From positions 1 through 64,000 of IMG/VR virus record IMGVR_UViG_2907233695_000001: a stretch of DNA of 64,000 bases. One strand, 5' to 3'. Positions 4,950 to 63,685 of the stretch are shown here, piece by piece. Source of the DNA: a virus. Its lineage: Duplodnaviria; Caudoviricetes. A program made the position numbers and the translations under genes. The notes beneath the pieces are model-generated. The model searched no databases. It saw nothing but the letters and a program-made list of their open reading frames with translations, and was not told where the DNA came from. The first letter of the stretch is position 1. Every line of letters begins with the position of its first letter.

Positions 4950-5894
4950 TCATTTGTTATTTTTATTCTTGCCCAAGTAATCAATCAGCATGTCACCGTC
5001 TATAATACCATTGTGATAATAATCTCTAGCCAATAGATATGGAAGCTCATTCTCGTCGCAAAATCTCCTTAGTCCGATTTTTTCATTGTTATAAGAGACC
5101 CAAAAATAAATCGCTTCTTCGGAAATTTCATTCTCTGTAATCTTTTTCTTCACCACATCTAATCCGTTTGGGATGTTTTTTAAAATGATTGTATCAACAT
5201 CTCTACTTGCTTTTGCGGTAAATCTTATGTATCTCTTATCTGATGTTTGCAGTTTACAATCAAGGTTAAAATTTCTATGTATAATATCAAGCATTTTATC
5301 AACTTCAATTTCATTATACGGAGCAACACATAACTCCCAATATGTAGGACTTCTGCTGGCATCATCTAACATCCAAATGGAAAATGAAAATTCATTCAGT
5401 CTATCCATAACGTCACAAATTGGCATATCACGAAATCTTTTTAGATCATCTAAACTCCTAGTATTGAATCTAAAAGCATCTTGAGAAATATACACCTTGT
5501 CTCCGAATGGCTTTTCTGTTGATTTGATTAGCCTAGGACTTGTATTGCAAATGTCTTTTAAAATCTCATACTTCCAATATAAATAGTCCCTTTCATCCTT
5601 CGCATGTGAGACGATAAATAGTGGTATGTATTTTTCATTTGTTATGTGACCATCGCCTAATATTGAGCCGACAATTAAATCTTCTTGCCTCGAACTCAAT
5701 TTTTTAACTTCTTTTCTAATATTTCCAGTCAATCTATGTTTTTCAACAACCCATTTTTTAATTGTTCTGACCGTTGTATTTGCTTCTTTTGCCATCTCTT
5801 GATGATTTAAGCCTTCGATTACAAATTTCTGATAACACCAATTATAGTCGTGATAAATTTCGTTTGTATAACTCGCATTGCTTTTAGTAGCCAT
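4950..5894 (-). CDS. Free-standing LAGLIDADG homing endonuclease with N-terminal HTH
   Basis: LIVGSILGDGHI and SIWMLDDAS LAGLIDADG helices; paralogous to 32097..33056. Confidence 0.85.
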   Translation of the reverse strand: MATKSNASYTNEIYHDYNWCYQKFVIEGLNHQEMAKEANTTVRTIKKWVVEKHRLTGNIRKEVKKLSSRQEDLIVGSILGDGHITNEKYIPLFIVSHAKDERDYLYWKYEILKDICNTSPRLIKSTEKPFGDKVYISQDAFRFNTRSLDDLKRFRDMPICDVMDRLNEFSFSIWMLDDASRSPTYWELCVAPYNEIEVDKMLDIIHRNFNLDCKLQTSDKRYIRFTAKASRDVDTIILKNIPNGLDVVKKKITENEISEEAIYFWVSYNNEKIGLRRFCDENELPYLLARDYYHNGIIDGDMLIDYLGKNKNNK

Positions 5895-32096: not shown

Positions 32097-33056
32097 TTAT
32101 GCTAATAACAATAATTTATAGGCCATTGTTTCTCTTGCCATTTTACCTAACTCAGAATTTTTTACTACATTAATTAATTTTTCTGTATCTGCAATATCAA
32201 ATTTTAAACCAGAATAAATTCCTTCTTCTTTTTTTCTCCATTTTATTTTAGCATTTATATTAAATTTATTTTTAAACATCTGTATGGCGTATTCAATCTC
32301 GTCTCTGTTTAACCATTTCATGGCGAACTGTATATGACCGTTACCCTTACGGTAATTTTTAATTTCAAGCGATCCATCATCTAGATACCACACTGTCAAA
32401 CTGTTTGGGTTGAGATTGTTTAGTAATTCATAAGTATTCATATCGTTATACCTATTTAAATTACGAATGTATCTAGTGTAAAAATAAAATTGATTTTGTC
32501 TGTTGTATCCATCGCTTTCATTAAGTCTATATGAGAATTTTAATTCATTAATGGGACATAAATTTCTCATAACATCAAACTTGGCTTGACAATACTCCTT
32601 TTGTGATTCTTGATGAAAAACTGTAAGAATACTGCTCTCACCTTTTCTTGTCAAAGCACCATCGCCAAGCACACTGCCAATTATTACATCATGTTGTAAT
32701 TCACTAATTAAAAATTGTTCATGATGTTTTTCTTTTTGCATCTCATAAGTAATATTAAATTTTTGCAATCTCCTTCTAATTACGGTATGAGTAGTATTAT
32801 ATATTTCAGCGATTTCTTCTGGTGATTTTTGTTCTTCTATGTATAAGTTATACAGGCATTCTCTTGTGTATTTATTTTTTTCTGGATCGTTCCTATCTCT
32901 GTCTTCCCAAGTTATACCGTATTTCCGCAAATTAACATTTACTGTTACTGTTGTACATCCATAAATATCAGCTATTTCCTTGGTAGTTTTGAGTTGATTT
33001 ACAAACAAATCATATAATTCTTCTTTGTCGAATTTAAATTTAATTACACTCGCCAT
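32097..33056 (-). CDS. Free-standing LAGLIDADG homing endonuclease with tandem N-terminal HTH repeats
   Basis: IIGSVLGDGAL and VWYLDDGSL; two EIA.IY..T HTH repeats; sits between helicase and primase. Confidence 0.85.
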   Translation of the reverse strand: MASVIKFKFDKEELYDLFVNQLKTTKEIADIYGCTTVTVNVNLRKYGITWEDRDRNDPEKNKYTRECLYNLYIEEQKSPEEIAEIYNTTHTVIRRRLQKFNITYEMQKEKHHEQFLISELQHDVIIGSVLGDGALTRKGESSILTVFHQESQKEYCQAKFDVMRNLCPINELKFSYRLNESDGYNRQNQFYFYTRYIRNLNRYNDMNTYELLNNLNPNSLTVWYLDDGSLEIKNYRKGNGHIQFAMKWLNRDEIEYAIQMFKNKFNINAKIKWRKKEEGIYSGLKFDIADTEKLINVVKNSELGKMARETMAYKLLLLA

Positions 33057-52400: not shown

Positions 52401-53867
52401 CCTTGCTTGATAGTTTCTTCAATAATTTGATGTGTTCTTTTGTCCAACCGTTTACTTCAAGCAATTCTGCTTCAAGAAGATGGTCAACCGCTTCCTTAAC
52501 CAAATCCTCAACCTTGACATCCATCTATATATCACCCTCTACTTATCTTCGAATTTCTTAATAATCTCTTCTGCTTCTTCTTCAGTACCGACCTTTTCAA
52601 CGAACATAGCCCAATTTTCTTCAATAAATTCTTTAATCATTACCTTTTCGTAAAACTCCAACTCATTCATATCTGAATCTCTCCCTTAATAAAATTATCT
52701 TTTCATTACCTAATCTTCGATTCTTGACCAAGAACAATTAATCTTCTCATGTAACCATTTATCATAATGGTCTTCGATCAAAGACTCTGCCTCTTGTTCA
52801 CTCAAACCGTCAAAATCTTCATCATCAATCTCATATATATCTTCTCGTTTACTTCCTGCATATCCAGTGCTAACACTAAAAATTTAGCCATATCTCAATC
52901 CCAACCCCTCTGTTATTTGAATGAACTTAACCTTTCATCACTCTTTACATTCATCGCAAACTTCACGGTGGTGTCCACAATCCAAACAAGGTTTTCCAAC
53001 ATTCCCACAGTGAAAATGGTAACTAGTAACTGTCCCATCGTTCTCCATGCGATTTAGAGAAGCATGTTCAAAAGGGATTTCATAATTACATTTCCCACAT
53101 CTGTTTTCCATTTTAATTACACACCCCTTCGAAATATCTATTTTATTCGCTTATAATAGTCTTGATTCGTCTCAACTGATCCAACGTCAAATCAATCTTT
53201 CCTAAAGTATCAAATACTTTTCTTATCTCCCATTGCAATTTGCTAACTTCCTCTTCGTCTAGAATTTCCTGCTTAGAAAAGTACAACTGCCAATCTGCAA
53301 TATACCCTCCCATTTTCTGCTGCTTGTCTTCGATTCTAAACTTAAGTGGCCTTAAACCATCGCCCACCTCAAAATACTTCCTGCCAACCTTAGATATGAT
53401 ATCCTCTCTAATATATACTTCTTTTCGACCTCTGGCATTATTCCCAACGGCCTTCAGATATACTTTGTCTCCAACTTGCACCTTTATCACTTCCTCATGA
53501 AATTTCGGTTTCATCATCCACAACCTTATCACCAGAAACAGATGATGAAACCGAACAACAACTTTAGATTTCTTCTAGTGCTCCAGCACCCTGTAATTCG
53601 TTTACTCTAATTGGAATAGCATTGCCCTTTAGCCCAACCCCATCATCACAGATCATCTCTAAATTCACTTGCTGTCTTGTGCCTAGCAATAGGCTAGTCA
53701 ATTCATTTTGTGCGCCATCAATGCCCACAGTCCAAAATTTCATTCCATTACCACTAGTAGTTACGGTTATAAATCCAACTTCGAAGGATAATTCTCTTCC
53801 ATCAACTTTGATCGACGATAATTTCTTTTGCATTCTGTTGGCCTCCTAGAATAAAGTAACCATTTCG
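49422..53867 (-). other. Early accessory gene array with junction motifs
   Basis: Motif copies at 49422, 49693, 51037, 51402, 51671, 51942, 52144, 52345, 52690, 53130, 53498, 53852; promoter-like TTGACT-18-TATATT near 53902-53931 heads the array. Confidence 0.75.
49715..50365 (-). CDS. HNH endonuclease
   Basis: CAYCG...LHKEHV...NDLSNCIPSCKNCNSQK; N-terminal Zn ribbons. Confidence 0.85.
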   Translation of the reverse strand: MEYKLCNTCLQWFPCNSEYYYKNKQNKMDGYNAYCKECTIKKSKLWQKENPEQYKKLKEKHNANRPENQVVSTRLSSKRRLKDGRHKEWQQSERGKLAHKKSRERRKAKKHIISKEEWTKCKLYFDDSCAYCGLHISEHFIKYAGEFKWTDLHKEHVDDNGANDLSNCIPSCKNCNSQKWEFDLDEWYNEHNPFFTYERLLKINKWLNGDCYIHID

Positions 53868-53983
53868 TGCCGTTATGTATCCAATTACTTCCTGTATTTA
53901 GAATATAACATACATAAAAAATATAAGTCAATATATTTTAACGTTTATTTATACATTATTTATTTTGTCAAAATATAAAGAAA

Positions 53984-54001
53984 AGCTGAGTTTCCTCAGC
54001 T
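53984..54001 (-). terminator. Probable terminator closing the agr-like/LytTR unit
   Basis: AGCTGAG-tttc-CTCAGCT followed by a T-rich tract on the minus strand. Confidence 0.5.
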
Positions 54002-54024
54002 CACCTCAATACTACCTACTTTTC

Positions 54025-54297
54025 CTAACTGTTATCGCCAAGTTTCGATTGTATGTAGCGCCTTGTAGTGGCCTCTAATCCCTCTGGATTGAAGTCACCA
54101 TCGTAATGGTCGATCCAGAAGATTAGATCGCTGTCAGAACAAACAGAAGAGTCAATGATTTTATATAGACCAGACTCTTTGGATAAGCCACAAACAAACT
54201 CCAGCCAAATCATAAAAAACTGTCTACCTCTATCCCAATTTTCAAGATAAAAATCATAATCAAAGTTTTGTTTATCTAATCTGGCTGCATGTGGCAT
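54025..54297 (-). CDS. Hypothetical protein, last gene of the LytTR unit
   Basis: 90-aa ORF with AAGGGGA RBS. Confidence 0.6.
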   Translation of the reverse strand: MPHAARLDKQNFDYDFYLENWDRGRQFFMIWLEFVCGLSKESGLYKIIDSSVCSDSDLIFWIDHYDGDFNPEGLEATTRRYIQSKLGDNS

Positions 54298-54317
54298 AAA
54301 TTTTTCCCCTTTAGTTA

Positions 54318-54800
54318 TTATATTTTTGTTGCCCTTAAATTTTTCTCATCATGTGATAGCCGTTTAATAATCGATGCTAGAATTTTTGTTATGCCCTTTT
54401 TGTTTCTGCTCTGCTGAGCAAATTCATAATCACTCTCTTTTATAGACGCACCGAATTTAATCCGTTTTAAAGTAAACTTGATATAATCCTCATGTATTCT
54501 CGCTACACTTCCGAGCAACTCTTTATTATCGTAAAAATTAACATTGCCATTCTCATCCATTGACTCAATTTGATGCAGGTTTAAGATGTTATTTCTATCA
54601 GTTTGTCTAAAATTATCAAAGAACAAAATGTCGCTCCATTGCTCAATTGTATTTGCTATTTTGTAACGGTCAGTTGCGGTGATGAAAATAACTCCCTTTT
54701 CACCTAACTCAGTTTCGATCATGATAATATCTGATTTATTTACTATTTCTAATATACTTGATCTTATGTTAAGCAAAACTAAATTATCGCCAGTCATCAT
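54318..54800 (-). CDS. Stand-alone LytTR DNA-binding protein (no receiver domain)
   Basis: VNKSDIIMIE...VIFIT...TIEQWSDIL...FRQTDRNNILNLHQIE. Confidence 0.75.
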   Translation of the reverse strand: MMTGDNLVLLNIRSSILEIVNKSDIIMIETELGEKGVIFITATDRYKIANTIEQWSDILFFDNFRQTDRNNILNLHQIESMDENGNVNFYDNKELLGSVARIHEDYIKFTLKRIKFGASIKESDYEFAQQSRNKKGITKILASIIKRLSHDEKNLRATKI

Positions 54801-55122
54801 TCAAATCACAACCTTTAGCGTTTGTCAATGAATTTTCACAGTCCATGAAAAGTAATTTACATACACTGTGCATTAACTTATAATCATTCTTGTAAGATAC
54901 AGCGCAACACAAGCGTTACACATACTCCTTAACATAGTGAGCTGTCGCCAAACAAATCCACTTAGTTAGGGAGTATTTTTTATTACAATCATATGTATCA
55001 CCTCTTTTAATGTTTGTAAGTTCAGTATTACATTTGTTAAATATACCACAATTTACTTCGCTTGGAACTACAGATTTTCGCATAAAAATCTGCGTTTACA
55101 ATGCCTTATTTTTATGTATATG

Positions 55123-55151
55123 TGTCGAATTTTTGTCGATTCCTTGTCGAA
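55123..55151 (+). promoter_or_regulatory. Three tandem Spo0A-box-like heptamers at 11-bp period
   Basis: TGTCGAA 55123, TGTCGAT 55134, TGTCGAA 55145 (0A consensus TGNCGAA). Confidence 0.65.
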
Positions 55152-55169
55152 TATAAAAAAGAAGCGTGT

Positions 55170-55712
55170 TCATATCAGAACATCGCTTCTTTTTTTCGGG
55201 AAACTTAACTTAGATGAATATATGCCAACTTGAGTATTGATGTCATTTTCTTTTCCGAGTGCCTTTGATATATTCCCCTTTATACAATCTCCAGAAACAG
55301 TTACATATAACTTAGTTTCATGGGTTGCATTTTCATCAAAATATACTCGCATGTAGTAACTGTCATATTTTTTGGCTAACCTCATATTTACATATTGTCT
55401 TTTATGAGTTGGTATAAAACCATATTGAGCCAAAAACCTGTCGAAGTTACCACTTCCTTTACTACAAGTCAGTCGCTCATAAACAATCGACCGAGTATAA
55501 AACATCATTATGTCTTTTGGCTGCTCTAAAAATAAAATGGTGTTTAATGGAACCCACTCTATTTCTTTTGATGATGTATTTACCAGCGGTATAGATCGCT
55601 CAGGTTCAGTGGAAATCTCATCGGCAACTTCAAGAGATAATTTATCAATTTCATCTGTTGTGATTTTTGATCCAAGTTTATCAAGGAGCAATGCTTTGAC
55701 TCTTTCAAGCAT
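55170..55712 (-). CDS. Stand-alone LytTR DNA-binding protein (no receiver domain)
   Basis: EWVPLNTILFLEQ...MFYT...FDRFL..YGFIPTHKRQYVNMR...VYFD...VTVS. Confidence 0.78.
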   Translation of the reverse strand: MLERVKALLLDKLGSKITTDEIDKLSLEVADEISTEPERSIPLVNTSSKEIEWVPLNTILFLEQPKDIMMFYTRSIVYERLTCSKGSGNFDRFLAQYGFIPTHKRQYVNMRLAKKYDSYYMRVYFDENATHETKLYVTVSGDCIKGNISKALGKENDINTQVGIYSSKLSFPKKRSDVLI

Positions 55713-55733
55713 CTTGATTCATCCCCCTGTTAT

Positions 55734-55766
55734 GGTTGCCATAAACGGGAGTTATTTATGGCAACC
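55734..55766. terminator. 12-bp stem-loop between agrD and the LytTR gene (attenuating or mRNA-stabilising)
   Basis: GGTTGCCATAAA...TTTATGGCAACC; no clear U tract. Confidence 0.55.
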
Positions 55767-55779
55767 CAATAGAGAATCA

Positions 55780-55950
55780 TTAGTTCTTTTGGGACATTTT
55801 TTCAAGCAAAGATGCTGGAGCTTTTGGCTCGTTAACAAAACCAGCAGACGATGGAGTGATAACAACATCACCAGTTGTTGGAGTTGTATCAGTATAGGCA
55901 GCATCAACAGCAGTTTTCATGATTGCTTTAGTAAGAAGTTTGTTCAACAT
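55780..55950 (-). CDS. agrD: AgrD-like cyclic lactone autoinducer precursor (56 aa, absent from the ORF track)
   Basis: AAAGGAGGTG RBS; MLNKLLTKAIMKTAVDAAYTDTTPTTGDVVITPSSAGFVNEPKAPASLLEKMSQKN; S-x4 ring followed by the EPxxPxxL recognition tail; in the agrB operon. Confidence 0.85.
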   Translation of the reverse strand: MLNKLLTKAIMKTAVDAAYTDTTPTTGDVVITPSSAGFVNEPKAPASLLEKMSQKN

Positions 55951-55992
55951 GTATTTTCACCTCCTTTAATGAAATATGCGAAAGGCAATAAT

Positions 55993-56661
55993 TTACATTC
56001 TACTAAACTCTTCCTTATTACGTTTGCTTGAGAAATATATTGTAACCATCGTTATCAAAATTAGAATAACGACGAATGCAATCAATGCTGTAGCGTTTTT
56101 TTCTGAAAAGTACATGTAACTAAACACCGCTAACTGGATCACAACAAGTACACCCAAATTAAGGAATACAATATTCTTCGTTGTTACATTTTCTTTTCCG
56201 TCTAACTCAAATCCAAAGCTCGTATTTGTGAATTTTATGTACCAACAGAAAATGTAAATGATGGTTACTGTGACAACTTGTAATGCATGTCCTTCGAATG
56301 AATCAGGTTGAATTTGTTCAAGATCGACAATGTTATACATTTTTATGATGAAGACTAAAAGTCCTTGAACACTCAGGAAAGCAGCATACCCAACTATTGA
56401 AGTAAAAAATCCATAGAGTAATTTCTGCTTGAACATCAGAATCATCATAGCTACAACTAACAAAACTTGAATCGGAATTGCGTATTGCTGCATATTAAGC
56501 AGTTCAATAATTATGTAAGAACAACCTGCCAAGAGTACCGATGATCCAACTAACTCTTTGATGTAATACTTTACGTGGAAGTGGAATATTGACATTACCA
56601 ACAATAAAATCGATGAAAACTCAAGAGATGACAATAGAATAAATAACGCCTTTTCCAACAT
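55993..56661 (-). CDS. Multi-pass membrane protein resembling an AgrC sensor domain, with no cytoplasmic kinase
   Basis: About 7 TM segments in 222 aa, ends right after the last TM; lies between agrB and agrD. Confidence 0.75.
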   Translation of the reverse strand: MLEKALFILLSSLEFSSILLLVMSIFHFHVKYYIKELVGSSVLLAGCSYIIIELLNMQQYAIPIQVLLVVAMMILMFKQKLLYGFFTSIVGYAAFLSVQGLLVFIIKMYNIVDLEQIQPDSFEGHALQVVTVTIIYIFCWYIKFTNTSFGFELDGKENVTTKNIVFLNLGVLVVIQLAVFSYMYFSEKNATALIAFVVILILITMVTIYFSSKRNKEEFSRM

Positions 56662-56681
56662 TAGAATAACCTTCTCTCTTT

Positions 56682-57200
56682 TTAATGGTTTCTATTTAAT
56701 TTAAATAATGTTGTTAAGGATTGAACAAAAAATGCTACTGTTATTGTTTCATAATTTATTGTCAGCAAGTTAAGCAGGACTATTAGGATAGAGATAAATT
56801 TTAGTTTCAGATATACTTTACTTTGCCAATTTGCTTTAACCTTGTATGTTAACGGTGCTCCAATGAATAGTATTACTATCGAGACTATAGACATTATAAG
56901 CGCAGTCTGTTCAGTTACTTTTATTAGAGGGATCGTTGTTAATATGATGGTTGATATCAACACACACATCTCAGATGAATTTACATGTAGGCCACCAGAA
57001 TATCGCCTTAGTAAAGCGAAGCAGAAAATTGCTAGAATAATGTCTAGAAAATGACTTCCGATGATCAATCCTATTGTTATCGTGAACGTAATAACAAATA
57101 TGTAATTTAACCATAAACTTAAGCCATATTGCAGCCACTCAACTTCTACATCCGATTCTTTATCCCACTTCTTGACTAAAACAGCCAATCCGTAGGCCAT
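56682..57200 (-). CDS. agrB: AgrB-family peptide maturation endopeptidase
   Basis: LQYGL, FALLRRYSGGLHVNSSEMC (catalytic His and Cys), GAP, QSLT. Confidence 0.9.
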   Translation of the reverse strand: MAYGLAVLVKKWDKESDVEVEWLQYGLSLWLNYIFVITFTITIGLIIGSHFLDIILAIFCFALLRRYSGGLHVNSSEMCVLISTIILTTIPLIKVTEQTALIMSIVSIVILFIGAPLTYKVKANWQSKVYLKLKFISILIVLLNLLTINYETITVAFFVQSLTTLFKLNRNH

Positions 57201-57300
57201 ACGACTTATGATTGCAATCTCCCCCTTCTAGAAACATAGTCCCAATTATACATTATCTATTTAATCTCTTCAAGCAATTTAACTCGTCCTTACATTTATT

Positions 57301-57330
57301 AATTTACCATGTTTTACATGTATAAGTCAA
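57301..57330 (-). promoter_or_regulatory. SigA-like promoter for the agrB operon
   Basis: TTGACT-18-TAAATT with an extended TG. Confidence 0.5.
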
Positions 57331-57392
57331 CAGTTTTTTATATATTATTTGTATATTTTATTTTATTTGAAAAATAAGAATACCCTCGTAAT

Positions 57393-58361
57393 TTAACGAG
57401 GGTACAGATTGCGAATTGTCTCCACATTTAAAAATTCTGACTTGATCCTATACATTGATTGCTCACCATCGATGCCGAATTGTTTCATAATCAAACTATA
57501 GTCTTCAGAGCTTAGTTGATCTTTCGAACCAAGTAACGAATTCGCCATTTCTAACATGCCACTATATGCAATATGCTTTGGCACAAACATCGGCTCCTGC
57601 AAATCCGCAGCAATTTTAGTAAGTCTTCGGTGAATTATATTCTTTTCGCTTTGCGAGTAGCTTTTGGTATTAGTATTAGCTGTCTTAATTACAAATTCCG
57701 TGTCGATCAGATTTGCAATATCAGCTTTGCGGTTGACGTTCGGCTCTCCGTTCATTTTTTCATAATCGAGTTCCAGAGATGCGCGGACAACTAATTTGAT
57801 ACATTGAGGGCTTACTTTAATTGTTCGTCTGTTCCCTTCGTCGTCCGTCAGAGTTAACGTCTCATTGTCTCTATCTACATCAGATGCCTTAAGATTAAGG
57901 AGCTCGCTACTTTCTTTCCCTGAGACCCCATTTCTAAGCAAACTAATTACCACTCCGTCTTGAGCGTTAACACAACTATCAATAATCTTGTCTAATTCCT
58001 CTCCAGTCCAATACTTTTTAATTTGATTATTGACAAACTGGATTGCCCAATCATTAGGGGTGAAATCAAGTGGATTCAGTCCTTTTTTTGCTCCAGAATC
58101 TAAGGCAAATGAAATATATTTGCTAATCCAGCTTATATTCTGTTTGCTGGAATACTCTGTTGTAGGCCTGAACAAATATAATAACTGTCTGATTTGCTCA
58201 ATGTTGAAATCATAAAGGTCTTTTCCTAAATCGCTCTCTTTATTAAAAGAAATCTTAAATATTCTACCCAAAGTTTTTTGTGTCCCTTTGCCATACTGAG
58301 ACATAAATTCATTTTTAAATTCTTCGTTGTATATCTGATCCCCATAAAGAATATTGGACAT
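57393..58361 (-). CDS. Integrase-fold protein with a degenerate catalytic site; probable lysogeny master repressor (SPbeta YopR/MrpR-like)
   Basis: E..LGKDLYDFN N-terminal domain; NGVSGKESSELLNLK lacks the catalytic Arg; PKHIAYSGM lacks HxxR; follows a YopQ-like gene. Confidence 0.75.
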   Translation of the reverse strand: MSNILYGDQIYNEEFKNEFMSQYGKGTQKTLGRIFKISFNKESDLGKDLYDFNIEQIRQLLYLFRPTTEYSSKQNISWISKYISFALDSGAKKGLNPLDFTPNDWAIQFVNNQIKKYWTGEELDKIIDSCVNAQDGVVISLLRNGVSGKESSELLNLKASDVDRDNETLTLTDDEGNRRTIKVSPQCIKLVVRASLELDYEKMNGEPNVNRKADIANLIDTEFVIKTANTNTKSYSQSEKNIIHRRLTKIAADLQEPMFVPKHIAYSGMLEMANSLLGSKDQLSSEDYSLIMKQFGIDGEQSMYRIKSEFLNVETIRNLYPR

Positions 58362-58388: not shown

Positions 58389-59840
58389 TTAATTAATCAA
58401 ATCATCTATAGTTACATTGCCATCAGGTTCAGTTCCCTTAACTTGTTTTTCAAAAAACTTTCTAATTAAATCTTTAGTCTGATTAGAGTTTCTATTTCCT
58501 TGCTCTTTCATAATTGTTCCATACTCAGAATCCTTGCTCATATCGATTGAGTTAACTAATTGAGTAACACTCTCAACTGAAAGAGATTTATTATCATATA
58601 AATGTTTCGCTATTACACAATACCCTACAAAGGTATTATGATGATTCAACCAATCTTCTTTCGACTTTGCAAGAATGTTTGTTTTGAAGTGTTCAGGATA
58701 AGAATTGAGAAGAATCCCAAAGAATCTCTTGAGATGTTCAAATACCATTTCTTCTTCTAAGTCGTTTTTAATTTCAAAAATAGTTCCAATTGATTTAGAA
58801 AGTACATCAATGTTTGTAAGCTGCCCCAGTTTTTTATCGACTCTCGTTCTAATTGACACTTTACCTTCTAATGCAGAATCATCCATAAGTCTTTTAGCAA
58901 TATTTCTTTCTGACCCTTTTTCATTGTAATGCTTTGCCAATACCTTATCAAATGGATTGACCGTATTGAACTGCCCCAAGGCTTCCTGTGCCTTCTTGAG
59001 AGTGTAATGCTTGATTGACACGTTCATATAACCTTCTAGATTTGGATCGATTTGAAGTGCTCTAACCATACCCTGAAGTCTGTGCCAACCGTCAATAATA
59101 TCAACTTCTGTACCCTCATAAATTGTCAAATCGCCATTATCATATTCGATCTTATCGTTTCCGTTCACCAAAATGTTGAAGATGATGGTGTCAGTACTAA
59201 AATCGCCTTTTAACATTTTGTCAGCAATTGCTTCTACACTTTTCTTGACTGTCTTAGGTTTGACTGTTACTTTTCCTTTCTTTGTTGCTTTTTCAATCGG
59301 AAGTCTTTGACACTTGAAGTTGTACGTAATCATGTCTGCCAAGTACCATCCTACAATCTCTTTATATGACATGGCAGTTATGAATTCTGTCTTACCAGTT
59401 CTAATTACATTTACAATTGTATAAGGGAAAGTTGGTAATTCACTTTCGTATTCATACTTTAAGGCTTTATTTATTTCTCTAGAACTGTAAAATGACTTTG
59501 GATCAATTCTTTTATCATCTGTAATTTTGTGAACTACAATTGTAAGCAGAGTTAATTCTTCTTGTGATAACTGATCCAGTCGCTCATTGTGAATTAGAAT
59601 TTCATTAAATCTTCCTCTTGGAATATGGTGCTTCGCAAGTTCATCATCTATCTGCATTTGTTGTTCTTTTTTCTTATTTACGTCTTGTAGAACTAAACTT
59701 AATGCATCAATTAAATCTAAATTTTCAGCAACGTTACTCATCAAGACCATCCCCTCATATTTTTTATCCATTACTTTAATTATACACCAAATAAATAAAA
59801 AAATACACATAAATGAAAATTGCAGTCTACGCAATTTCAT
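58389..59840 (-). CDS. DGQHR/DndB (ParB-like) domain protein, SPbeta YopQ-like (true start probably near 59741)
   Basis: ITYNFKCQR, IIDGWHRL, F..NT motifs; paired with the integrase-fold repressor. Confidence 0.75.
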   Translation of the reverse strand: MKLRRLQFSFMCIFLFIWCIIKVMDKKYEGMVLMSNVAENLDLIDALSLVLQDVNKKKEQQMQIDDELAKHHIPRGRFNEILIHNERLDQLSQEELTLLTIVVHKITDDKRIDPKSFYSSREINKALKYEYESELPTFPYTIVNVIRTGKTEFITAMSYKEIVGWYLADMITYNFKCQRLPIEKATKKGKVTVKPKTVKKSVEAIADKMLKGDFSTDTIIFNILVNGNDKIEYDNGDLTIYEGTEVDIIDGWHRLQGMVRALQIDPNLEGYMNVSIKHYTLKKAQEALGQFNTVNPFDKVLAKHYNEKGSERNIAKRLMDDSALEGKVSIRTRVDKKLGQLTNIDVLSKSIGTIFEIKNDLEEEMVFEHLKRFFGILLNSYPEHFKTNILAKSKEDWLNHHNTFVGYCVIAKHLYDNKSLSVESVTQLVNSIDMSKDSEYGTIMKEQGNRNSNQTKDLIRKFFEKQVKGTEPDGNVTIDDLIN

Positions 59841-59925: not shown

Positions 59926-61311
59926 TTAAACTTCATCTATGAAATCAACTTTATATGCCCATCTAAACCCACCTGCTGTTTTTCGTTTTCCGTTACACAC
60001 TGAAGAAATATTTTCAATTGATACTTTACATTTTTCTGAAGCAACAGTCGCACTTATATATTCACAGATAAATTGACCATTCAATGTCAACTGAACAATA
60101 GGTTTTCTCGTTTTTACACCTGCTTTAGCACTTCCATTTCTCGATTCTTTTGTTGGATCATACGCACACCAACCTAATTCCAACCCAATCTTAAGATATT
60201 TAATTATCGTAGGTTTAGATATTTTCATTATTTCAGAAATTTCATTAGCGGTAATATTGTCGTTATTGAAGTATTCACAAGCTATTTTTATCATTGATTT
60301 TAAACTTAGTTCGTGGCACGAATCCCAGTTTATTCTACTCAAATTAATAATTGTTGCCAATTCACTATTTAGAATACTGCCTTTTATATAATTCAACTCT
60401 GACTTGCTACAATTAATCACTATATAATACCTTATATTATGACGTAAGGCCATATCTCGTTTAAAACAGTCATTCATTTTTTCCTCATCTAATGTTCTTT
60501 TGCCTAATGTGTTTTCCTCATAATGCTGTCTCCCGTGAGTTTCAATGATACAGTTTAAGGATGGGATATAAAAATCAAAACTCTTTTTTTCTGACCACTC
60601 AAAAGATTTTTGATATTCAAAATCAATACCTGCTTGAAATAGTAGATTGTACATAAGCCTTTCTGGGTAAGGAATTGTATTAGAACATTTGGGGCAAGAA
60701 ACACCGTACAAGCTAACAGAACTTATTCTTTTATTCTTTATTTTACTTAAACAATCAGGACATTTAAAATCAACATGTTTTTTGCTCATGATTGTATACC
60801 GATATCCATCTTCATGATTCCAAAGTAGGGTGCCTAAAATTGGATCGACAGTATGAATATCATTAATCCCCTTTACAATCTTTCTTGGGGCAATACAACA
60901 TGCATTACAACCTGCTCCGCGAGATATAGCTGCCTCTCTTATTTTGTCTTCATTTCCGCAATTTAGACACTTATAAAAATAAATCTTAGCCTTCTTATTG
61001 TCTTTATATTTTCCCGTTATCTCTAGTTTCCCAGAATTAACGTTGTCGATAATACTTCCAATCTCGTGAAAATGATCAGAGGTTATTTTCCCCAATAAGC
61101 ACCCTAGCTTGCAACTCGTAAATCCGCTTATATACATCGAATGAATTCGATTTTTATATTTTAGCTTTATGTAGTAATTCTCATTATACTCCAGTATCTC
61201 AACAAACCCAGACATTCCTTCATAAATAAAACCAACGCTCAACCCTACACATCGTTTCCAGTCAACATACTTTCCCTTTTTCGGAAGGTCATCTAAAAAT
61301 ACTTTATTCAA
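59926..61311 (-). CDS. Homing-endonuclease-like protein: Zn ribbons, Vsr/PD-(D/E)XK-type nuclease and NUMOD1-like C-terminus
   Basis: Multiple CxxC; FDFYIPS..CIIETHGRQHY; KPIVQLTLNG...S...A...ISSVCNGKRKTAGGFRW. Confidence 0.75.
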   Translation of the reverse strand: MNKVFLDDLPKKGKYVDWKRCVGLSVGFIYEGMSGFVEILEYNENYYIKLKYKNRIHSMYISGFTSCKLGCLLGKITSDHFHEIGSIIDNVNSGKLEITGKYKDNKKAKIYFYKCLNCGNEDKIREAAISRGAGCNACCIAPRKIVKGINDIHTVDPILGTLLWNHEDGYRYTIMSKKHVDFKCPDCLSKIKNKRISSVSLYGVSCPKCSNTIPYPERLMYNLLFQAGIDFEYQKSFEWSEKKSFDFYIPSLNCIIETHGRQHYEENTLGKRTLDEEKMNDCFKRDMALRHNIRYYIVINCSKSELNYIKGSILNSELATIINLSRINWDSCHELSLKSMIKIACEYFNNDNITANEISEIMKISKPTIIKYLKIGLELGWCAYDPTKESRNGSAKAGVKTRKPIVQLTLNGQFICEYISATVASEKCKVSIENISSVCNGKRKTAGGFRWAYKVDFIDEV

Positions 61312-62251: not shown

Positions 62252-63685
62252 CTAAACTACACTTAATTTCTTGTCCATCATTTCAAGTCTACCAACCTCT
62301 ACATCATGCAACCTCAAAAAGTTGTCCCAAGTTTCAATACATTTTTCTCTATTAACTTCATTTAATTTACTATTCACATTCATAATCAAAAAAGCACTAT
62401 ATAAATCACGTTGCACTAAATTATTTCCAATCTTCTTCCATCTTTCTTCTATAGTAGATTTTTTGTATGTGTCATCAATGTGACTGTACTGACTTGCTCT
62501 TGTCGATCTTGTGTCAATTTCGTTTAAAAGCAATCCATAATAACTCAATTTATTTTTTAGTATATTAATAAACATTGAAGGCGCTTTATTACTTATTGAT
62601 TTACCATATCTCTTTTTGCTCTTGAATTTTCCATGTTTATTCTTCTCTGTTTCTTTGGATCGTCTACTCAATCCAGCATAAGATATTGGCTCTATATAAA
62701 ATTCATTTCCAAGTGATACAATTTCGTTAGCAAGAACATTATGATCCATTTTTCTTATGCTTGCTAATTTGCGTTGTAATTCTGCCAGTGCGTTTTTCGT
62801 TTTAATATAACTCTTACTTAAAATCCATTTGTCTTTATTTCCTTTTTTAATTGTCCCGTCTTCATTGAATTTATGAGGATTATTCGCCCTACATTGACGA
62901 TCTAATTTGCGTTGCAATCTACGTTTTTCTTTATCAATACTGTTGATACTTGGTGCAAGCTCATATATTTTAGCAGAAGTTTCACACGACACAGCCATAA
63001 TCTGTAATGATGTATCAATCCCAACTTTACCTTCGCCAAATTTATGTTTAAACATTCCAGTTTCATTGTCAATCTTTTTTGGAGGGATGCCTTCAAGTAC
63101 AAGTTGAATATAATACCTAGTTTCACCTCTAATCAATTTGCGAACAATACGACAATATTTAATTTTTCTTGTTAATGCTTCATATGCATAATCGTCATTC
63201 TTCTTAAGAAGGACTGGAATTTTTAATTTATTCCATTCAAGATGCTCGTTACGATACTTAATACCTTGTCTATTACTTGCACCTTCAATTGAGTCCATTT
63301 CGCCAACTCGTTTAATATATACCCTCTTGGCTCTGCCGATCATTATTTTAAACGTTGCAGCAAAAGCTCTTTGTGCTAATTTCTGAGTTGTACTTGAATC
63401 AATGCCGTTAAATTCATTCACACGCAAAGGAGTTGAAAACATGATCATGTCATTTTTAGTAAATTTAAATTCAGTTTGAATTCGTGCGTATGCCTTAGAC
63501 TGTTCTTTTTTTGGCAGATTTTTAATATTTCGATATTGTCTTGATTGTCGCATTAGATTGAGCCGTTTTAGCGACTCTTTTAGTAAGGCATTGTAAAGTT
63601 TGCGAGACAACTCAAAGTATTTCTCTAACGCATGATTGTCAGAAATTGATGAATTTAAAGGTAATTCTAAAATAAATGTTGACAA
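62252..63685 (-). CDS. tnpB: TnpB-family RNA-guided endonuclease (IS200/IS605-like), no tnpA nearby
   Basis: RKLYNALL N-terminus; RuvC I VGIDTS, RuvC II FYIEP, RuvC III QRDLYSAFLI. Confidence 0.85.
   Translation of the reverse strand: MSTFILELPLNSSISDNHALEKYFELSRKLYNALLKESLKRLNLMRQSRQYRNIKNLPKKEQSKAYARIQTEFKFTKNDMIMFSTPLRVNEFNGIDSSTTQKLAQRAFAATFKIMIGRAKRVYIKRVGEMDSIEGASNRQGIKYRNEHLEWNKLKIPVLLKKNDDYAYEALTRKIKYCRIVRKLIRGETRYYIQLVLEGIPPKKIDNETGMFKHKFGEGKVGIDTSLQIMAVSCETSAKIYELAPSINSIDKEKRRLQRKLDRQCRANNPHKFNEDGTIKKGNKDKWILSKSYIKTKNALAELQRKLASIRKMDHNVLANEIVSLGNEFYIEPISYAGLSRRSKETEKNKHGKFKSKKRYGKSISNKAPSMFINILKNKLSYYGLLLNEIDTRSTRASQYSHIDDTYKKSTIEERWKKIGNNLVQRDLYSAFLIMNVNSKLNEVNREKCIETWDNFLRLHDVEVGRLEMMDKKLSVV

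Follow-up and report, generated by a model that had tools for sequence, protein, structure and literature searches.

Introduction

In the canonical agr systems of Staphylococcus aureus, Listeria and clostridia, the membrane peptidase AgrB cyclizes the precursor AgrD, and the peptide is sensed by the histidine kinase AgrC, which signals by phosphotransfer to the regulator AgrA. LytTR regulatory systems, such as HdrRM and BrsRM of Streptococcus mutans (PMC6193735), follow a kinase-free logic in which a receiver-less LytTR regulator with a direct-repeat target is paired with a co-encoded membrane protein. A third arrangement, arbitrium (AimR/AimP/AimX), is found in phages such as SPbeta and phi3T and relies on a linear hexapeptide that is imported and read by a cytoplasmic tetratricopeptide-repeat receptor of the RRNPP type. 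The locus analyzed here, positions 54025-57330 of a 64,000-nucleotide stretch of viral DNA (positions 1 to 64,000 of IMG/VR record IMGVR_UViG_2907233695_000001, Caudoviricetes; this whole stretch is hereafter called the window), carries a cassette that is hybrid-like with respect to these systems: signal production, sensor fold and LytTR output are of the agr kind, the combination of a membrane protein with a receiver-less LytTR protein is that of the LytTR regulatory systems, and the site is one at which arbitrium would be expected to act.

Phage-borne agr genes have been described before. Phage phiCDHM1 shares with the present cassette the presence of agrB and agrD but, unlike it, encodes a full AgrC kinase (PMC3901668). 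The Brevibacillus phages Davies, Emery and Abouo, which likewise carry agrB and agrD, were noted in one paragraph of the same paper (Hargreaves et al. 2014, PMC3901668) to encode AgrB, a putative AgrD and AgrC-like membrane proteins without an ATPase domain; the LytTR gene and the cis element were not noted there. A 2025 review mentions agr homologues in Bacillus and Clostridioides difficile phages (PMC11945551) and attributes them, through two cited papers, also to SPbeta-like phages. Literature searches returned no paper on the LytTR partner, the repeat block or the MrpR synteny described below, or on experiments with such a cassette.

Results and Discussion

Composition of the Cassette

The window makes up the first 64 kb of a contig of 164,118 bp and belongs to an integrated SPbeta/Tsamsa-like Paenibacillus prophage of ~164 kb. 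All genes and signals of the module and its flanks lie on the minus strand, in transcription order from 59840 to 53902. The original prediction, made from the letters of the DNA, had listed agrB with its catalytic His and Cys intact, a seven-helix membrane protein, agrD, a hairpin and two LytTR-only proteins, and each of these parts is found at the place assigned to it. The claim that neither a histidine kinase nor a receiver domain is present also holds, both for the proteins of the module and for the 164-kb contig as a whole: 123 receiver domains were matched in the genome and none of them on the phage contig, and the 12 kinases with a HATPase_c_5 domain all lie elsewhere in the host genome. 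The cassette is real, intact and conserved.

The comparison with canonical agr reveals both shared and missing elements. The shared ones comprise the His/Cys pair of AgrB, an AgrD with amphipathic leader, five-residue ring position and charged x-P-x-x-P tail, a polytopic sensor with a predicted AgrC-type membrane fold, and an output through a LytTR domain. In contrast to canonical agr, the sensor has neither DHp nor HATPase domain and the regulator has no receiver, and therefore no phosphotransfer is possible within the module. Furthermore, the ring nucleophile is Ser instead of Cys, the cassette lacks regulator sites at its own promoter, and its output site, with a period of 11 bp, is situated downstream of the gene for the regulator. 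It is consequently not a canonical agr system, as kinase, receiver and autoregulatory sites were all looked for and are absent.

The cassette likewise falls outside the LytTR regulatory systems as these are defined, on account of an unrelated membrane protein, a different gene order and the lack of repeats at the operon promoter. The membrane proteins of the described systems are small, unrelated to the phage sensor (DUF2154 in HdrM) and have no known ligand, whereas the phage protein is a seven-helix sensor of predicted AgrC type accompanied by its own peptide-making genes. The described systems also differ in gene order and in having autoregulatory repeats at the operon promoter.

With arbitrium, the cassette has in common that a phage peptide system stands beside the yopMNOPQR/MrpR lysogeny operon of large SPbeta-like phages, that the peptide sequence is phage-specific, and that there is a dedicated small output unit. 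Where arbitrium imports its hexapeptide, sensing of a cyclized peptide would here take place at the membrane, and the cassette is found on the downstream instead of the upstream side of mrpR. No AimR homologue accompanies it, for which reason the cassette is not arbitrium. The search for aimR that the original prediction had called for found no match to AimR (NF038310) above the NCBIfam cut-off anywhere in the genome, the best match on the contig scoring 19 bits and containing 3 stop codons; AimP was not searched separately.

The Seven-Helix Membrane Protein

The proposed peptide receptor is a membrane protein of 222 residues (55993-56661) that belongs to phrog_15604 and matches no Pfam or NCBIfam family. 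Its AlphaFold2 model contains seven helices (predicted local distance difference test, pLDDT, 93.8; predicted template modeling score, pTM, 0.90), and the chain stops after helix 7 without any kinase domain; the DHp and HATPase_c_5 domains of the AgrC sensor histidine kinase are missing. The Lys and Arg residues, as read from the sequence, are concentrated in the C-terminal tail and in the loops that follow helices 1, 3 and 5, which argues for an N-out, C-in topology. A cytoplasmic loop at residues 146-160 occupies the place at which the subfamily has an NEGFxF motif, not retained in this protein, and the tail contains KRNKEE.

Superposition on ESM Atlas models gave template modeling (TM) scores of 0.66-0.72 (by query) over 202-216 residues with the membrane domains of four clusters. 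These consist of Bacillota proteins of 311-460 residues carrying HATPase_c_5 and/or SPOB_a, that is, the domains of AgrC-type kinases. In this comparison, in which both sides are predicted models, the phage protein has the polytopic six- to seven-helix membrane fold of the HPK10 (AgrC/ComD-type) kinases, and the modeled fold is that of an AgrC-type sensor without the kinase. Solved structures are uninformative in either direction: their sequences gave no match, Foldseek returned nothing at E ≤ 0.001, with rhodopsins and G protein-coupled receptors in the top rows at TM-scores of ~0.2, and VIA-align matched the last helical hairpin only. An Atlas look-up by language-model features and the Atlas's own lower-quality model of the protein were uninformative as well.

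The original prediction had allowed that the gene might be a truncated agrC whose relatives all keep the kinase, and this possibility is not borne out. A profile search (HMMER) of 1.84 billion representatives gathered 426 clusters, among whose best 150 representatives 149 are 149-272 residues long. In the host family, at least one copy is present in 93 of 136 genomes, in open frames of ~215-290 residues. A search with the family alignment for longer, kinase-fused relatives returned none, although this is weak evidence by itself. Since essentially all relatives measure about 220 residues and none of the 150 listed is fused to a kinase, the membrane protein is not a truncated AgrC, and the kinase-less state is, judging from these alignments, the native form of the family.

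The single longer representative, WP_056042551 of Paenibacillus sp. Leaf72 (408 residues), joins a member of the membrane-protein family (residues 7-223) to AgrB (242-382); it could be a true fusion or the product of a frameshift between two overlapping genes. A profile of the family did not match the N-termini of eight host HATPase_c_5 kinases. No match to the membrane protein was obtained by tblastn against phages, scans of viral contigs with alignments of the family found no relatives, and word-based homologue searches with this protein and with LytTR1 returned the query alone. PHROGs places the protein in the category "moron, auxiliary metabolic gene and host takeover".

AgrB and the Predicted AgrD Peptide

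AgrB (172 residues, 56682-57200), the putative AgrD-cyclizing peptidase, is a membrane peptidase that matches Pfam AgrB above the cut-off (E 2.2e-17) and phrog_10353 (E 8e-29). Its catalytic pair, SGGxH72 and C79, is invariant in the alignment and is set at a spacing of 7 residues, which we take to be that of the catalytic His and Cys of S. aureus AgrB as well.

The AgrD precursor (56 residues, 55780-55950) is recognized by its position and by a conserved register, its score against TIGR04223 (NCBIfam) being 14.2 bits and under the cut-off of 19. A ring nucleophile stands five residues before the cleavage site and is followed by a charged C-terminal tail, so that the predicted product is a five-residue Ser lactone, SAGFV, preceding NEPKAP..LL (SAGFV/NEPKAPASLL, the slash marking the end of the ring). 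The register [C/S]x4-[H/N/F]-x-P-x-x-P is common to the small open reading frame (ORF) of nine homologous loci: four residues, mostly hydrophobic, separate the Cys or Ser from [H/N/F]-x-P-x-x-P-x-[E/S/D]-L. Besides SAGFV/NEPKAP of this phage, it is seen in CVGLV/HEPELP, CVSIF/HEPEMP, CTGAW/HEPEMP, SVFWI/NKPVAP, SAWFI/NKQEVP, STWFV/HRPEAP, CFGIW/FEPEAP and SAALI/HQPEAP. In its sequence pattern this is the layout of AgrD, with a ring that differs from phage to phage. The small ORF of the Paenibacillus xylaniclasticus prophage is atypical and has no x-P-x-x-P tail (locus L085).

Receiver-less LytTR Proteins

LytTR1 (180 residues, 55170-55712) is encoded in the same operon as the membrane protein and, from its model and its homologues, consists of an N-terminal two-helix hairpin and a divergent LytTR domain. 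It has no Pfam match of its own, and 10 of 14 homologues match Pfam LytTR. The AlphaFold2 model (pLDDT 83.9) shows the hairpin followed by a beta fold that Foldseek aligns with the LytTR domains of ComE (4cbv), a Bacillus cereus protein (3d6w) and AgrA (4g4k, 3bs1), with probability 1.0 and E values of 5e-6 to 4e-4. LytTR2 (160 residues, 54318-54800) matches Pfam LytTR directly (E 9e-9); it has a counterpart in some related modules (P. vulneris, FSL H7-0331, P. oleatilyticus and the chromosomal copy in genome G123) and none in others. In both proteins the LytTR domain occurs without a receiver, in contrast to AgrA, which consists of receiver and LytTR domain; receiver-less regulators of this kind are a feature of the LytTR regulatory systems.

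Downstream of the repeat block, the last gene is orf90 (54025-54297), which encodes a conserved protein of 90 residues with homologues in related prophages. These stand after the cassette in four prophages and directly after mrpR in the cassette-less prophages of P. profundus and P. apiarius; on this distribution, orf90 is a gene of the phage backbone that is present also where the cassette is absent. A 55-residue ORF at 54916-55083, in the spacer between the two LytTR genes, was not counted as a gene, having no homologue among the ORFs of related prophages. Inside it lies a 15-nt sequence, TTTGTTTGGCGACAG (54942-54956, minus strand), that is identical and identically placed in the FSL H7-0331 prophage.

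Transcription Signals and the TCGACA Block

Promoters and terminators divide the region into two transcription units. The mrpR unit is closed by an intrinsic terminator (57380-57405; 10-bp stem and T-run, -16.1 kcal/mol, z -5.7), after which a consensus scan places two sigma-A-type promoters before agrB (57245-57330), namely TTGACT-18-TAAATT with TG and TTGAAG-17-TATAAT. A strong TG-extended promoter precedes the cassette in every related prophage. In sequence, the agrB promoter is similar to the early promoter of the phage: both have the -35 context TTGACTTATA here, and ATATTGACAGC is common to the corresponding pair in the phage of strain CAVE-418. A 17-nt box, AAATA(G/A)ATAATGTATAA, occurs on the minus strand at the agrB promoter (57246-57262) and just upstream of the early promoter (53949-53965). 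It was rejected as an operator, because only these two copies are found on the 164-kb contig at up to one mismatch and none in other prophages.

Within the first unit, a stem-loop without U-tract separates agrD from the LytTR1 gene (55725-55774; -21.3 kcal/mol, z -4.75), and its base overlaps the Shine-Dalgarno sequence of LytTR1. Hairpins of -19 to -24 kcal/mol with unrelated sequences occur at the same place in four other loci, and the stem-loop probably determines how much LytTR1 is made relative to the products of the upstream genes. The agrB-membrane gene-agrD-LytTR1 operon ends in a strong intrinsic terminator (55149-55195; perfect 12-bp arms, U-run, -23.4 kcal/mol, z -5.7) whose stem spans the LytTR1 stop codon.

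The spacer from this terminator to LytTR2 measures 370 bp and begins with a conserved cis block (55094-55152), which is proposed to contain the LytTR1 operator and the output promoter. It consists of three TCGACA repeats with an 11-bp period at 55123-55150 (ATTCGACAAGG, AATCGACAAAA and ATTCGACACAT) and of a box, TTGTAAAC, ~20 nt further on (55094-55101). The TCGACA repeat pair occurs once on the 164-kb contig, at 55123-55150. In 11 loci of this cassette type, on phages and on chromosomes, the block immediately follows the LytTR1 gene on its 3' side; it was not found in Abouo-type cassettes. Repeats 1 and 3 form 9-bp direct repeats, ATTCGACAA and ATTCGACAC, that are 13 bp apart. This is near the rule for the LytTR family, by which 9-bp repeats are separated by 11-13 bp (PMC6193735). 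In position the block differs from that of the LytTR regulatory systems, as the repeats follow the operon's terminator, ahead of the next unit, and are not at the operon promoter. We infer that the block is the operator of LytTR1 and the start of the LytTR2-orf90 output unit, which is closed by a terminator at 53983-54002 (-15.7 kcal/mol, z -3.9).

Location between mrpR and orf90

The original prediction had placed the module between YopQ/MrpR-like genes and the promoter of the early gene array, and these flanks were recovered. Upstream lie, outside the module, a DndB/DGQHR-family (YopQ-like) protein of 483 residues (58389-59840; Pfam DndB E 1.7e-14) and a homologue of the master repressor MrpR/YopR of 322 residues (57393-58361; PF22822 E 1.9e-26, PF22823 E 6e-18), followed by the 57380-57405 terminator; downstream, the promoter of the early small-gene array (TTGACT-18-TATATT with TG, 53902-53931) was located by consensus scan. 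Both MrpR domains, the N-terminal core-binding and the C-terminal catalytic-like one, are above their cut-offs and the DndB-like gene precedes them, as in an SPbeta-like lysogeny region. Relatives of MrpR are found in 75 phage records, mostly of large Bacillus phages, and the protein is 30-35% identical to those of large (120-170 kb) siphoviruses of Bacillus, Geobacillus, Alicyclobacillus and Psychrobacillus.

The order DndB-MrpR-agrB-membrane gene-agrD-LytTR1 (-LytTR2) recurs in low-GC prophages of seven other Paenibacillaceae, namely P. vulneris, P. ferrarius, Paenibacillus sp. FSL H7-0331, P. oleatilyticus, P. filicis, P. xylaniclasticus and Paenibacillaceae strain CAVE-418. The gene ahead of mrpR in the related prophages encodes a DndB-like orthologue of 30-45% identity. 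The same gene order is found on a 217-kb IMG/VR contig, which agrees exactly with strain CAVE-418 in AgrD and repeat sequence and is probably the CAVE-418 phage again. Among the MrpR loci of species-representative genomes, the cassette stands directly after mrpR in 8 of 20, including that of Brevibacillus gelatini, where the membrane gene precedes agrB and the place is the same. In the latter prophage (DSM 100115, locus L092, 7107-9736), the AgrD SAALI/HQPEAP and a 116-residue LytTR protein are followed by a 265-residue receiver-LytTR response regulator, and no kinase was found among the ORFs tested at this locus.

The cassette occupies the gap between mrpR and orf90. In Alicyclobacillus phage KKP_3916 and Psychrobacillus phage Perkons, MrpR is followed by small early genes without a cassette. 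Because orf90 comes directly after mrpR in cassette-less relatives, the cassette is an insertion between the master repressor and the first downstream gene of the backbone. Its recurrence behind MrpR in at least eight other prophages argues, by synteny, for a link to the lysogeny control region. A copy outside any phage is found on the chromosome of genome G123, between panE and a two-component system.

Distribution among Phages and Chromosomes

A search with AgrB against phages found Abouo only. In this Brevibacillus phage, gp44 is the membrane protein (E 1e-13 to that of the window), gp45 is AgrB, gp46 is a 42-residue AgrD-like protein and gp47 is a LytTR protein of 122 residues, and the cassette sits between the integrase and repressor genes. 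The Abouo type is thus characterized by the order membrane gene-agrB-agrD-LytTR, a bare 122-residue LytTR protein and an integrase/CI-type repressor site on a 45-kb phage, whereas the type present in the window has the order agrB-membrane gene-agrD-LytTR1, an N-terminal extension on LytTR1, the TCGACA block and synteny with MrpR.

Taking the IMG/VR contigs with an AgrB relative, the membrane gene is adjacent in all nine and a small LytTR gene is present in eight of them. On the chromosomes of the host family, AgrB adjoins the membrane gene in 30 of the 30 best loci and a LytTR ORF occupies the same place in 25. Chromosomal loci of Paenibacillaceae resemble the phage cassette in encoding AgrB, AgrD and a homologue of the membrane protein next to a gene with a LytTR domain. 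In contrast to it, they are not linked to phages, and in the locus of this host the output is a cyclic di-GMP synthase/phosphodiesterase (GGDEF-EAL) fused to LytTR and not a DNA-binding regulator. No description of them was found in the literature.

The host has a kinase-less agr locus of this form in a 34% GC island (contig C93, ~38-42 kb; locus L001), with genes for a CPBP/CAAX-type membrane protease, a 241-residue membrane protein, AgrB, AgrD and a LytTR-GGDEF-EAL protein at 2-571, 786-1511, 1474-2037, 2027-2149 and from 2219 onward. The protease contains EExxxR and FxxxH motifs and is reminiscent of MroQ; the AgrD (40 residues) has no Cys or Ser at the ring position (TATFN/RPETPEELL). Furthermore, XRE-helix-turn-helix-LytTR proteins of ~225 residues adjoin one or two paralogues of the membrane protein (loci L064, L065, L066 and L067; genomes G026, G094, G099 and G104). 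All of these neighbors contain Pfam HTH_3, and Pfam LytTR was matched in three of five tested, the others being recognized by a custom LytTR profile only. No AgrB was found within the 3-kb loci of these paralogues. The arrangement suggests that a LytTR domain can serve for coupling rather than for DNA binding.

Across these loci, the constant element is, by gene content, the pair of membrane sensor and LytTR domain, and the output varies between LytTR alone, a helix-turn-helix domain and a cyclic di-GMP enzyme. The constant pairing would make the LytTR domain the part with which the sensor communicates, and it is the best indirect argument for this role.

Proposed Signaling Mechanism

The favored reading, which is considered probable, is that the module is an intact and self-contained agr-type peptide switch that works without phosphotransfer, the signal running from a lactone peptide to the kinase-less sensor, from there to LytTR1 by direct contact, and on to LytTR2 and orf90 via the TCGACA block. 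The first operon would be transcribed from the strong, early-type sigma-A promoter just after the mrpR terminator. AgrB would cyclize AgrD to the Ser lactone with its short tail, which would then be exported and bound from the outside by the membrane protein. As this protein has no kinase, a direct relay is proposed, in which the sensor would hold or release LytTR1 in the manner of the membrane inhibitors of streptococcal LytTR systems. Free LytTR1 would bind the three TCGACA repeats downstream of its own terminator and so control the transcription of LytTR2 and orf90. Since in cassette-less relatives the master repressor is directly followed by orf90, the cassette would gate the first post-repressor gene according to the density of cells or phage.

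A communication module linked to this repressor has a precedent, as MrpR of SPbeta represses early promoters and the arbitrium gene aimR (PMC10516654). By analogy with SPbeta MrpR, expression of the cassette may fall in the early phase of infection or induction. It is plausible that the cassette serves as an arbitrium-like input to a lysis-lysogeny switch. That the output is the lysis-lysogeny decision itself is put forward tentatively, at somewhat less than an even expectation. A wider proposal is likewise less likely than not: an SPbeta-like lineage of Paenibacillus phages would have replaced arbitrium by a membrane-sensed cyclic peptide, its stand-alone AgrC-type sensor contacting LytTR1 without phosphorylation and LytTR1 switching on orf90 to set lysis against lysogeny, and the coupling of sensor and LytTR, with helix-turn-helix or GGDEF-EAL outputs elsewhere, would represent a general and undescribed form of one-step transmembrane signaling in Bacillota.

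Several observations weigh against the proposed switch. The kinship of the membrane protein with AgrC sensors is drawn from predicted folds, and in an hhalign comparison the family profile aligned with phiCDHM1 AgrC in register from the N-terminus, but without significance (E 0.16, probability <1%). The contact between the receptor and LytTR1 is one that we infer. At the DNA level, an 11-bp repeat period is unusual for LytTR sites, no convincing -35/-10 pair could be placed downstream of the TCGACA repeats, and neither TCGACA nor periodic repeats were found upstream of agrB, so that no autoinduction loop of the kind usual in agr and in LytTR regulatory systems can be seen. The product of orf90 matches no family in Pfam or PHROGs. 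In the closely related FSL H7-0331 prophage, the AgrD reads PVGIW/HEPKMP, with Pro at the position of the ring nucleophile, and may give a linear peptide or belong to a silent listener phage or a decaying copy. The Leaf72 fusion would fit a role of the membrane protein in the making or export of the peptide as well. Morons with effects on the host, finally, typically occupy sites beside lysogeny genes as well.

In the main rival explanation, the cassette does work as a peptide signal but serves the lysogen (kin recognition, host behavior or superinfection control) instead of lysis-lysogeny, with orf90 and LytTR2 acting on host targets. Such a lysogenic-conversion module, which is considered unlikely, would agree with the chromosomal island of G123 beside panE and the two-component system, with the abundance of the related cyclic di-GMP-enzyme form on chromosomes including that of this host, with the moron category assigned by PHROGs, and with a module that brings its own promoters and terminators. 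However, the cassette stands behind the master repressor in at least nine prophages and in two gene orders, the TCGACA block is single on the phage and directly upstream of conserved phage genes, and orf90 belongs to the phage backbone even where there is no cassette. The same Leaf72 protein bears on an improbable alternative, namely that the membrane protein assists AgrB (in export, a second cleavage or self-immunity) and is not a receptor, LytTR1 being regulated otherwise, for example by re-imported peptide through its N-terminal helices, or not at all. The overlap of the membrane-protein and agrB genes in many loci and the extra N-terminal helical hairpin of LytTR1-class proteins would suit this explanation. 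It is difficult to reconcile with a fold that matches the predicted sensor domains of AgrC-type kinases over the whole length and with the paralogues that stand beside HTH-LytTR genes without AgrB in their 3-kb loci; the fusion, moreover, is one among the 150 representatives listed, and overlapping genes fuse easily by frameshift or sequencing error.

A phosphotransfer route supplied by the host is very improbable. Here the sensor would pair with a host histidine kinase, or a host AgrC-type kinase would read the peptide, the LytTR proteins being merely downstream. Candidates are certainly available among the 12 HATPase_c_5 kinases and 123 receiver domains of the host, a receiver-LytTR gene adjoins the cassette in the B. 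gelatini prophage, and phiCDHM1 is thought to depend on host AgrA (PMC3901668); the LytTR proteins of the phage, though, offer no receiver to phosphorylate, the second agrB locus of the host is itself kinase-less, and none of the eight host kinases tested is matched by the family profile. It is scarcely credible, finally, that the cassette is decaying or inert cargo of bacterial origin in which signaling has been lost, as might be read from the AgrD score below the family cut-off, the missing Pfam match of LytTR1 and the related prophage without a ring nucleophile. All ORFs are of full length and of the same size as their homologues, the catalytic residues are intact, and coding as well as non-coding parts (hairpin position, repeat block) are kept across many prophages at 25-35% protein identity.

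Prophage Context

The phage contig has a GC content of ~35%, compared with 50.7% for the 7.56-Mb genome, and encodes replication genes, among them DNA polymerase, ribonucleotide reductase, primase, DnaB and Sak4. Its start shares a 123-nt overlap with a contig of host GC content, which identifies the element as an integrated prophage. A search with the DNA of the whole module against 50,697 phage records gave no match, and no Rfam family was found in 53600-57500.

A palindrome, YRAAA-N6-TTTYR, occurs in 31 copies (6.9 expected) at 799-53513 of the window. All copies but one lie within the phage gene arrays at 7764-53513 and none in the agr cassette (53834-57400), an absence that fits a separate insertion of the cassette. 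Directly upstream of the DndB gene, a 461-residue HNH/homing-endonuclease-like protein is encoded (phrog_4538, 59926-61311), with a 477-residue transposase-like protein (phrog_506, 62252-63685) further upstream. Two LAGLIDADG-type proteins stand beside the polymerase and primase genes (4950-5894 and 32097-33056).

Conclusions

The original prediction holds in so far as the locus is a phage-borne agr-type module without kinase and receiver, distinct from arbitrium by the lack of AimR; it also follows MrpR in at least eight other prophages. The further steps of the prediction, in which the membrane protein would sequester LytTR factors to steer lysis-lysogeny or host behavior, are hypothetical. 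Its novelty is less than was implied, as related phage cassettes had been noted (PMC3901668) and similar loci are common on Paenibacillaceae chromosomes. New here are the precise list of parts, the kinase-less form as the native one, the insertion point between mrpR and orf90, and the candidate operator. With four genes and one candidate operator, the cassette is small and its parts are defined to the base, so that its reconstitution in Bacillus subtilis with a reporter is directly feasible.

Communication among phages is understood in few cases, namely arbitrium and phages that eavesdrop on quorum-sensing receptors of the host. If the proposed mechanism is true, a membrane-sensed cyclic peptide tied to the master-repressor region would constitute a second phage language, and one with a different mechanism. 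The example would make clear how receptors of the AgrC type can do without a kinase, with consequences for the many agrBD loci in Bacillota that are orphans and for the question of which ligands act on LytTR regulatory systems.

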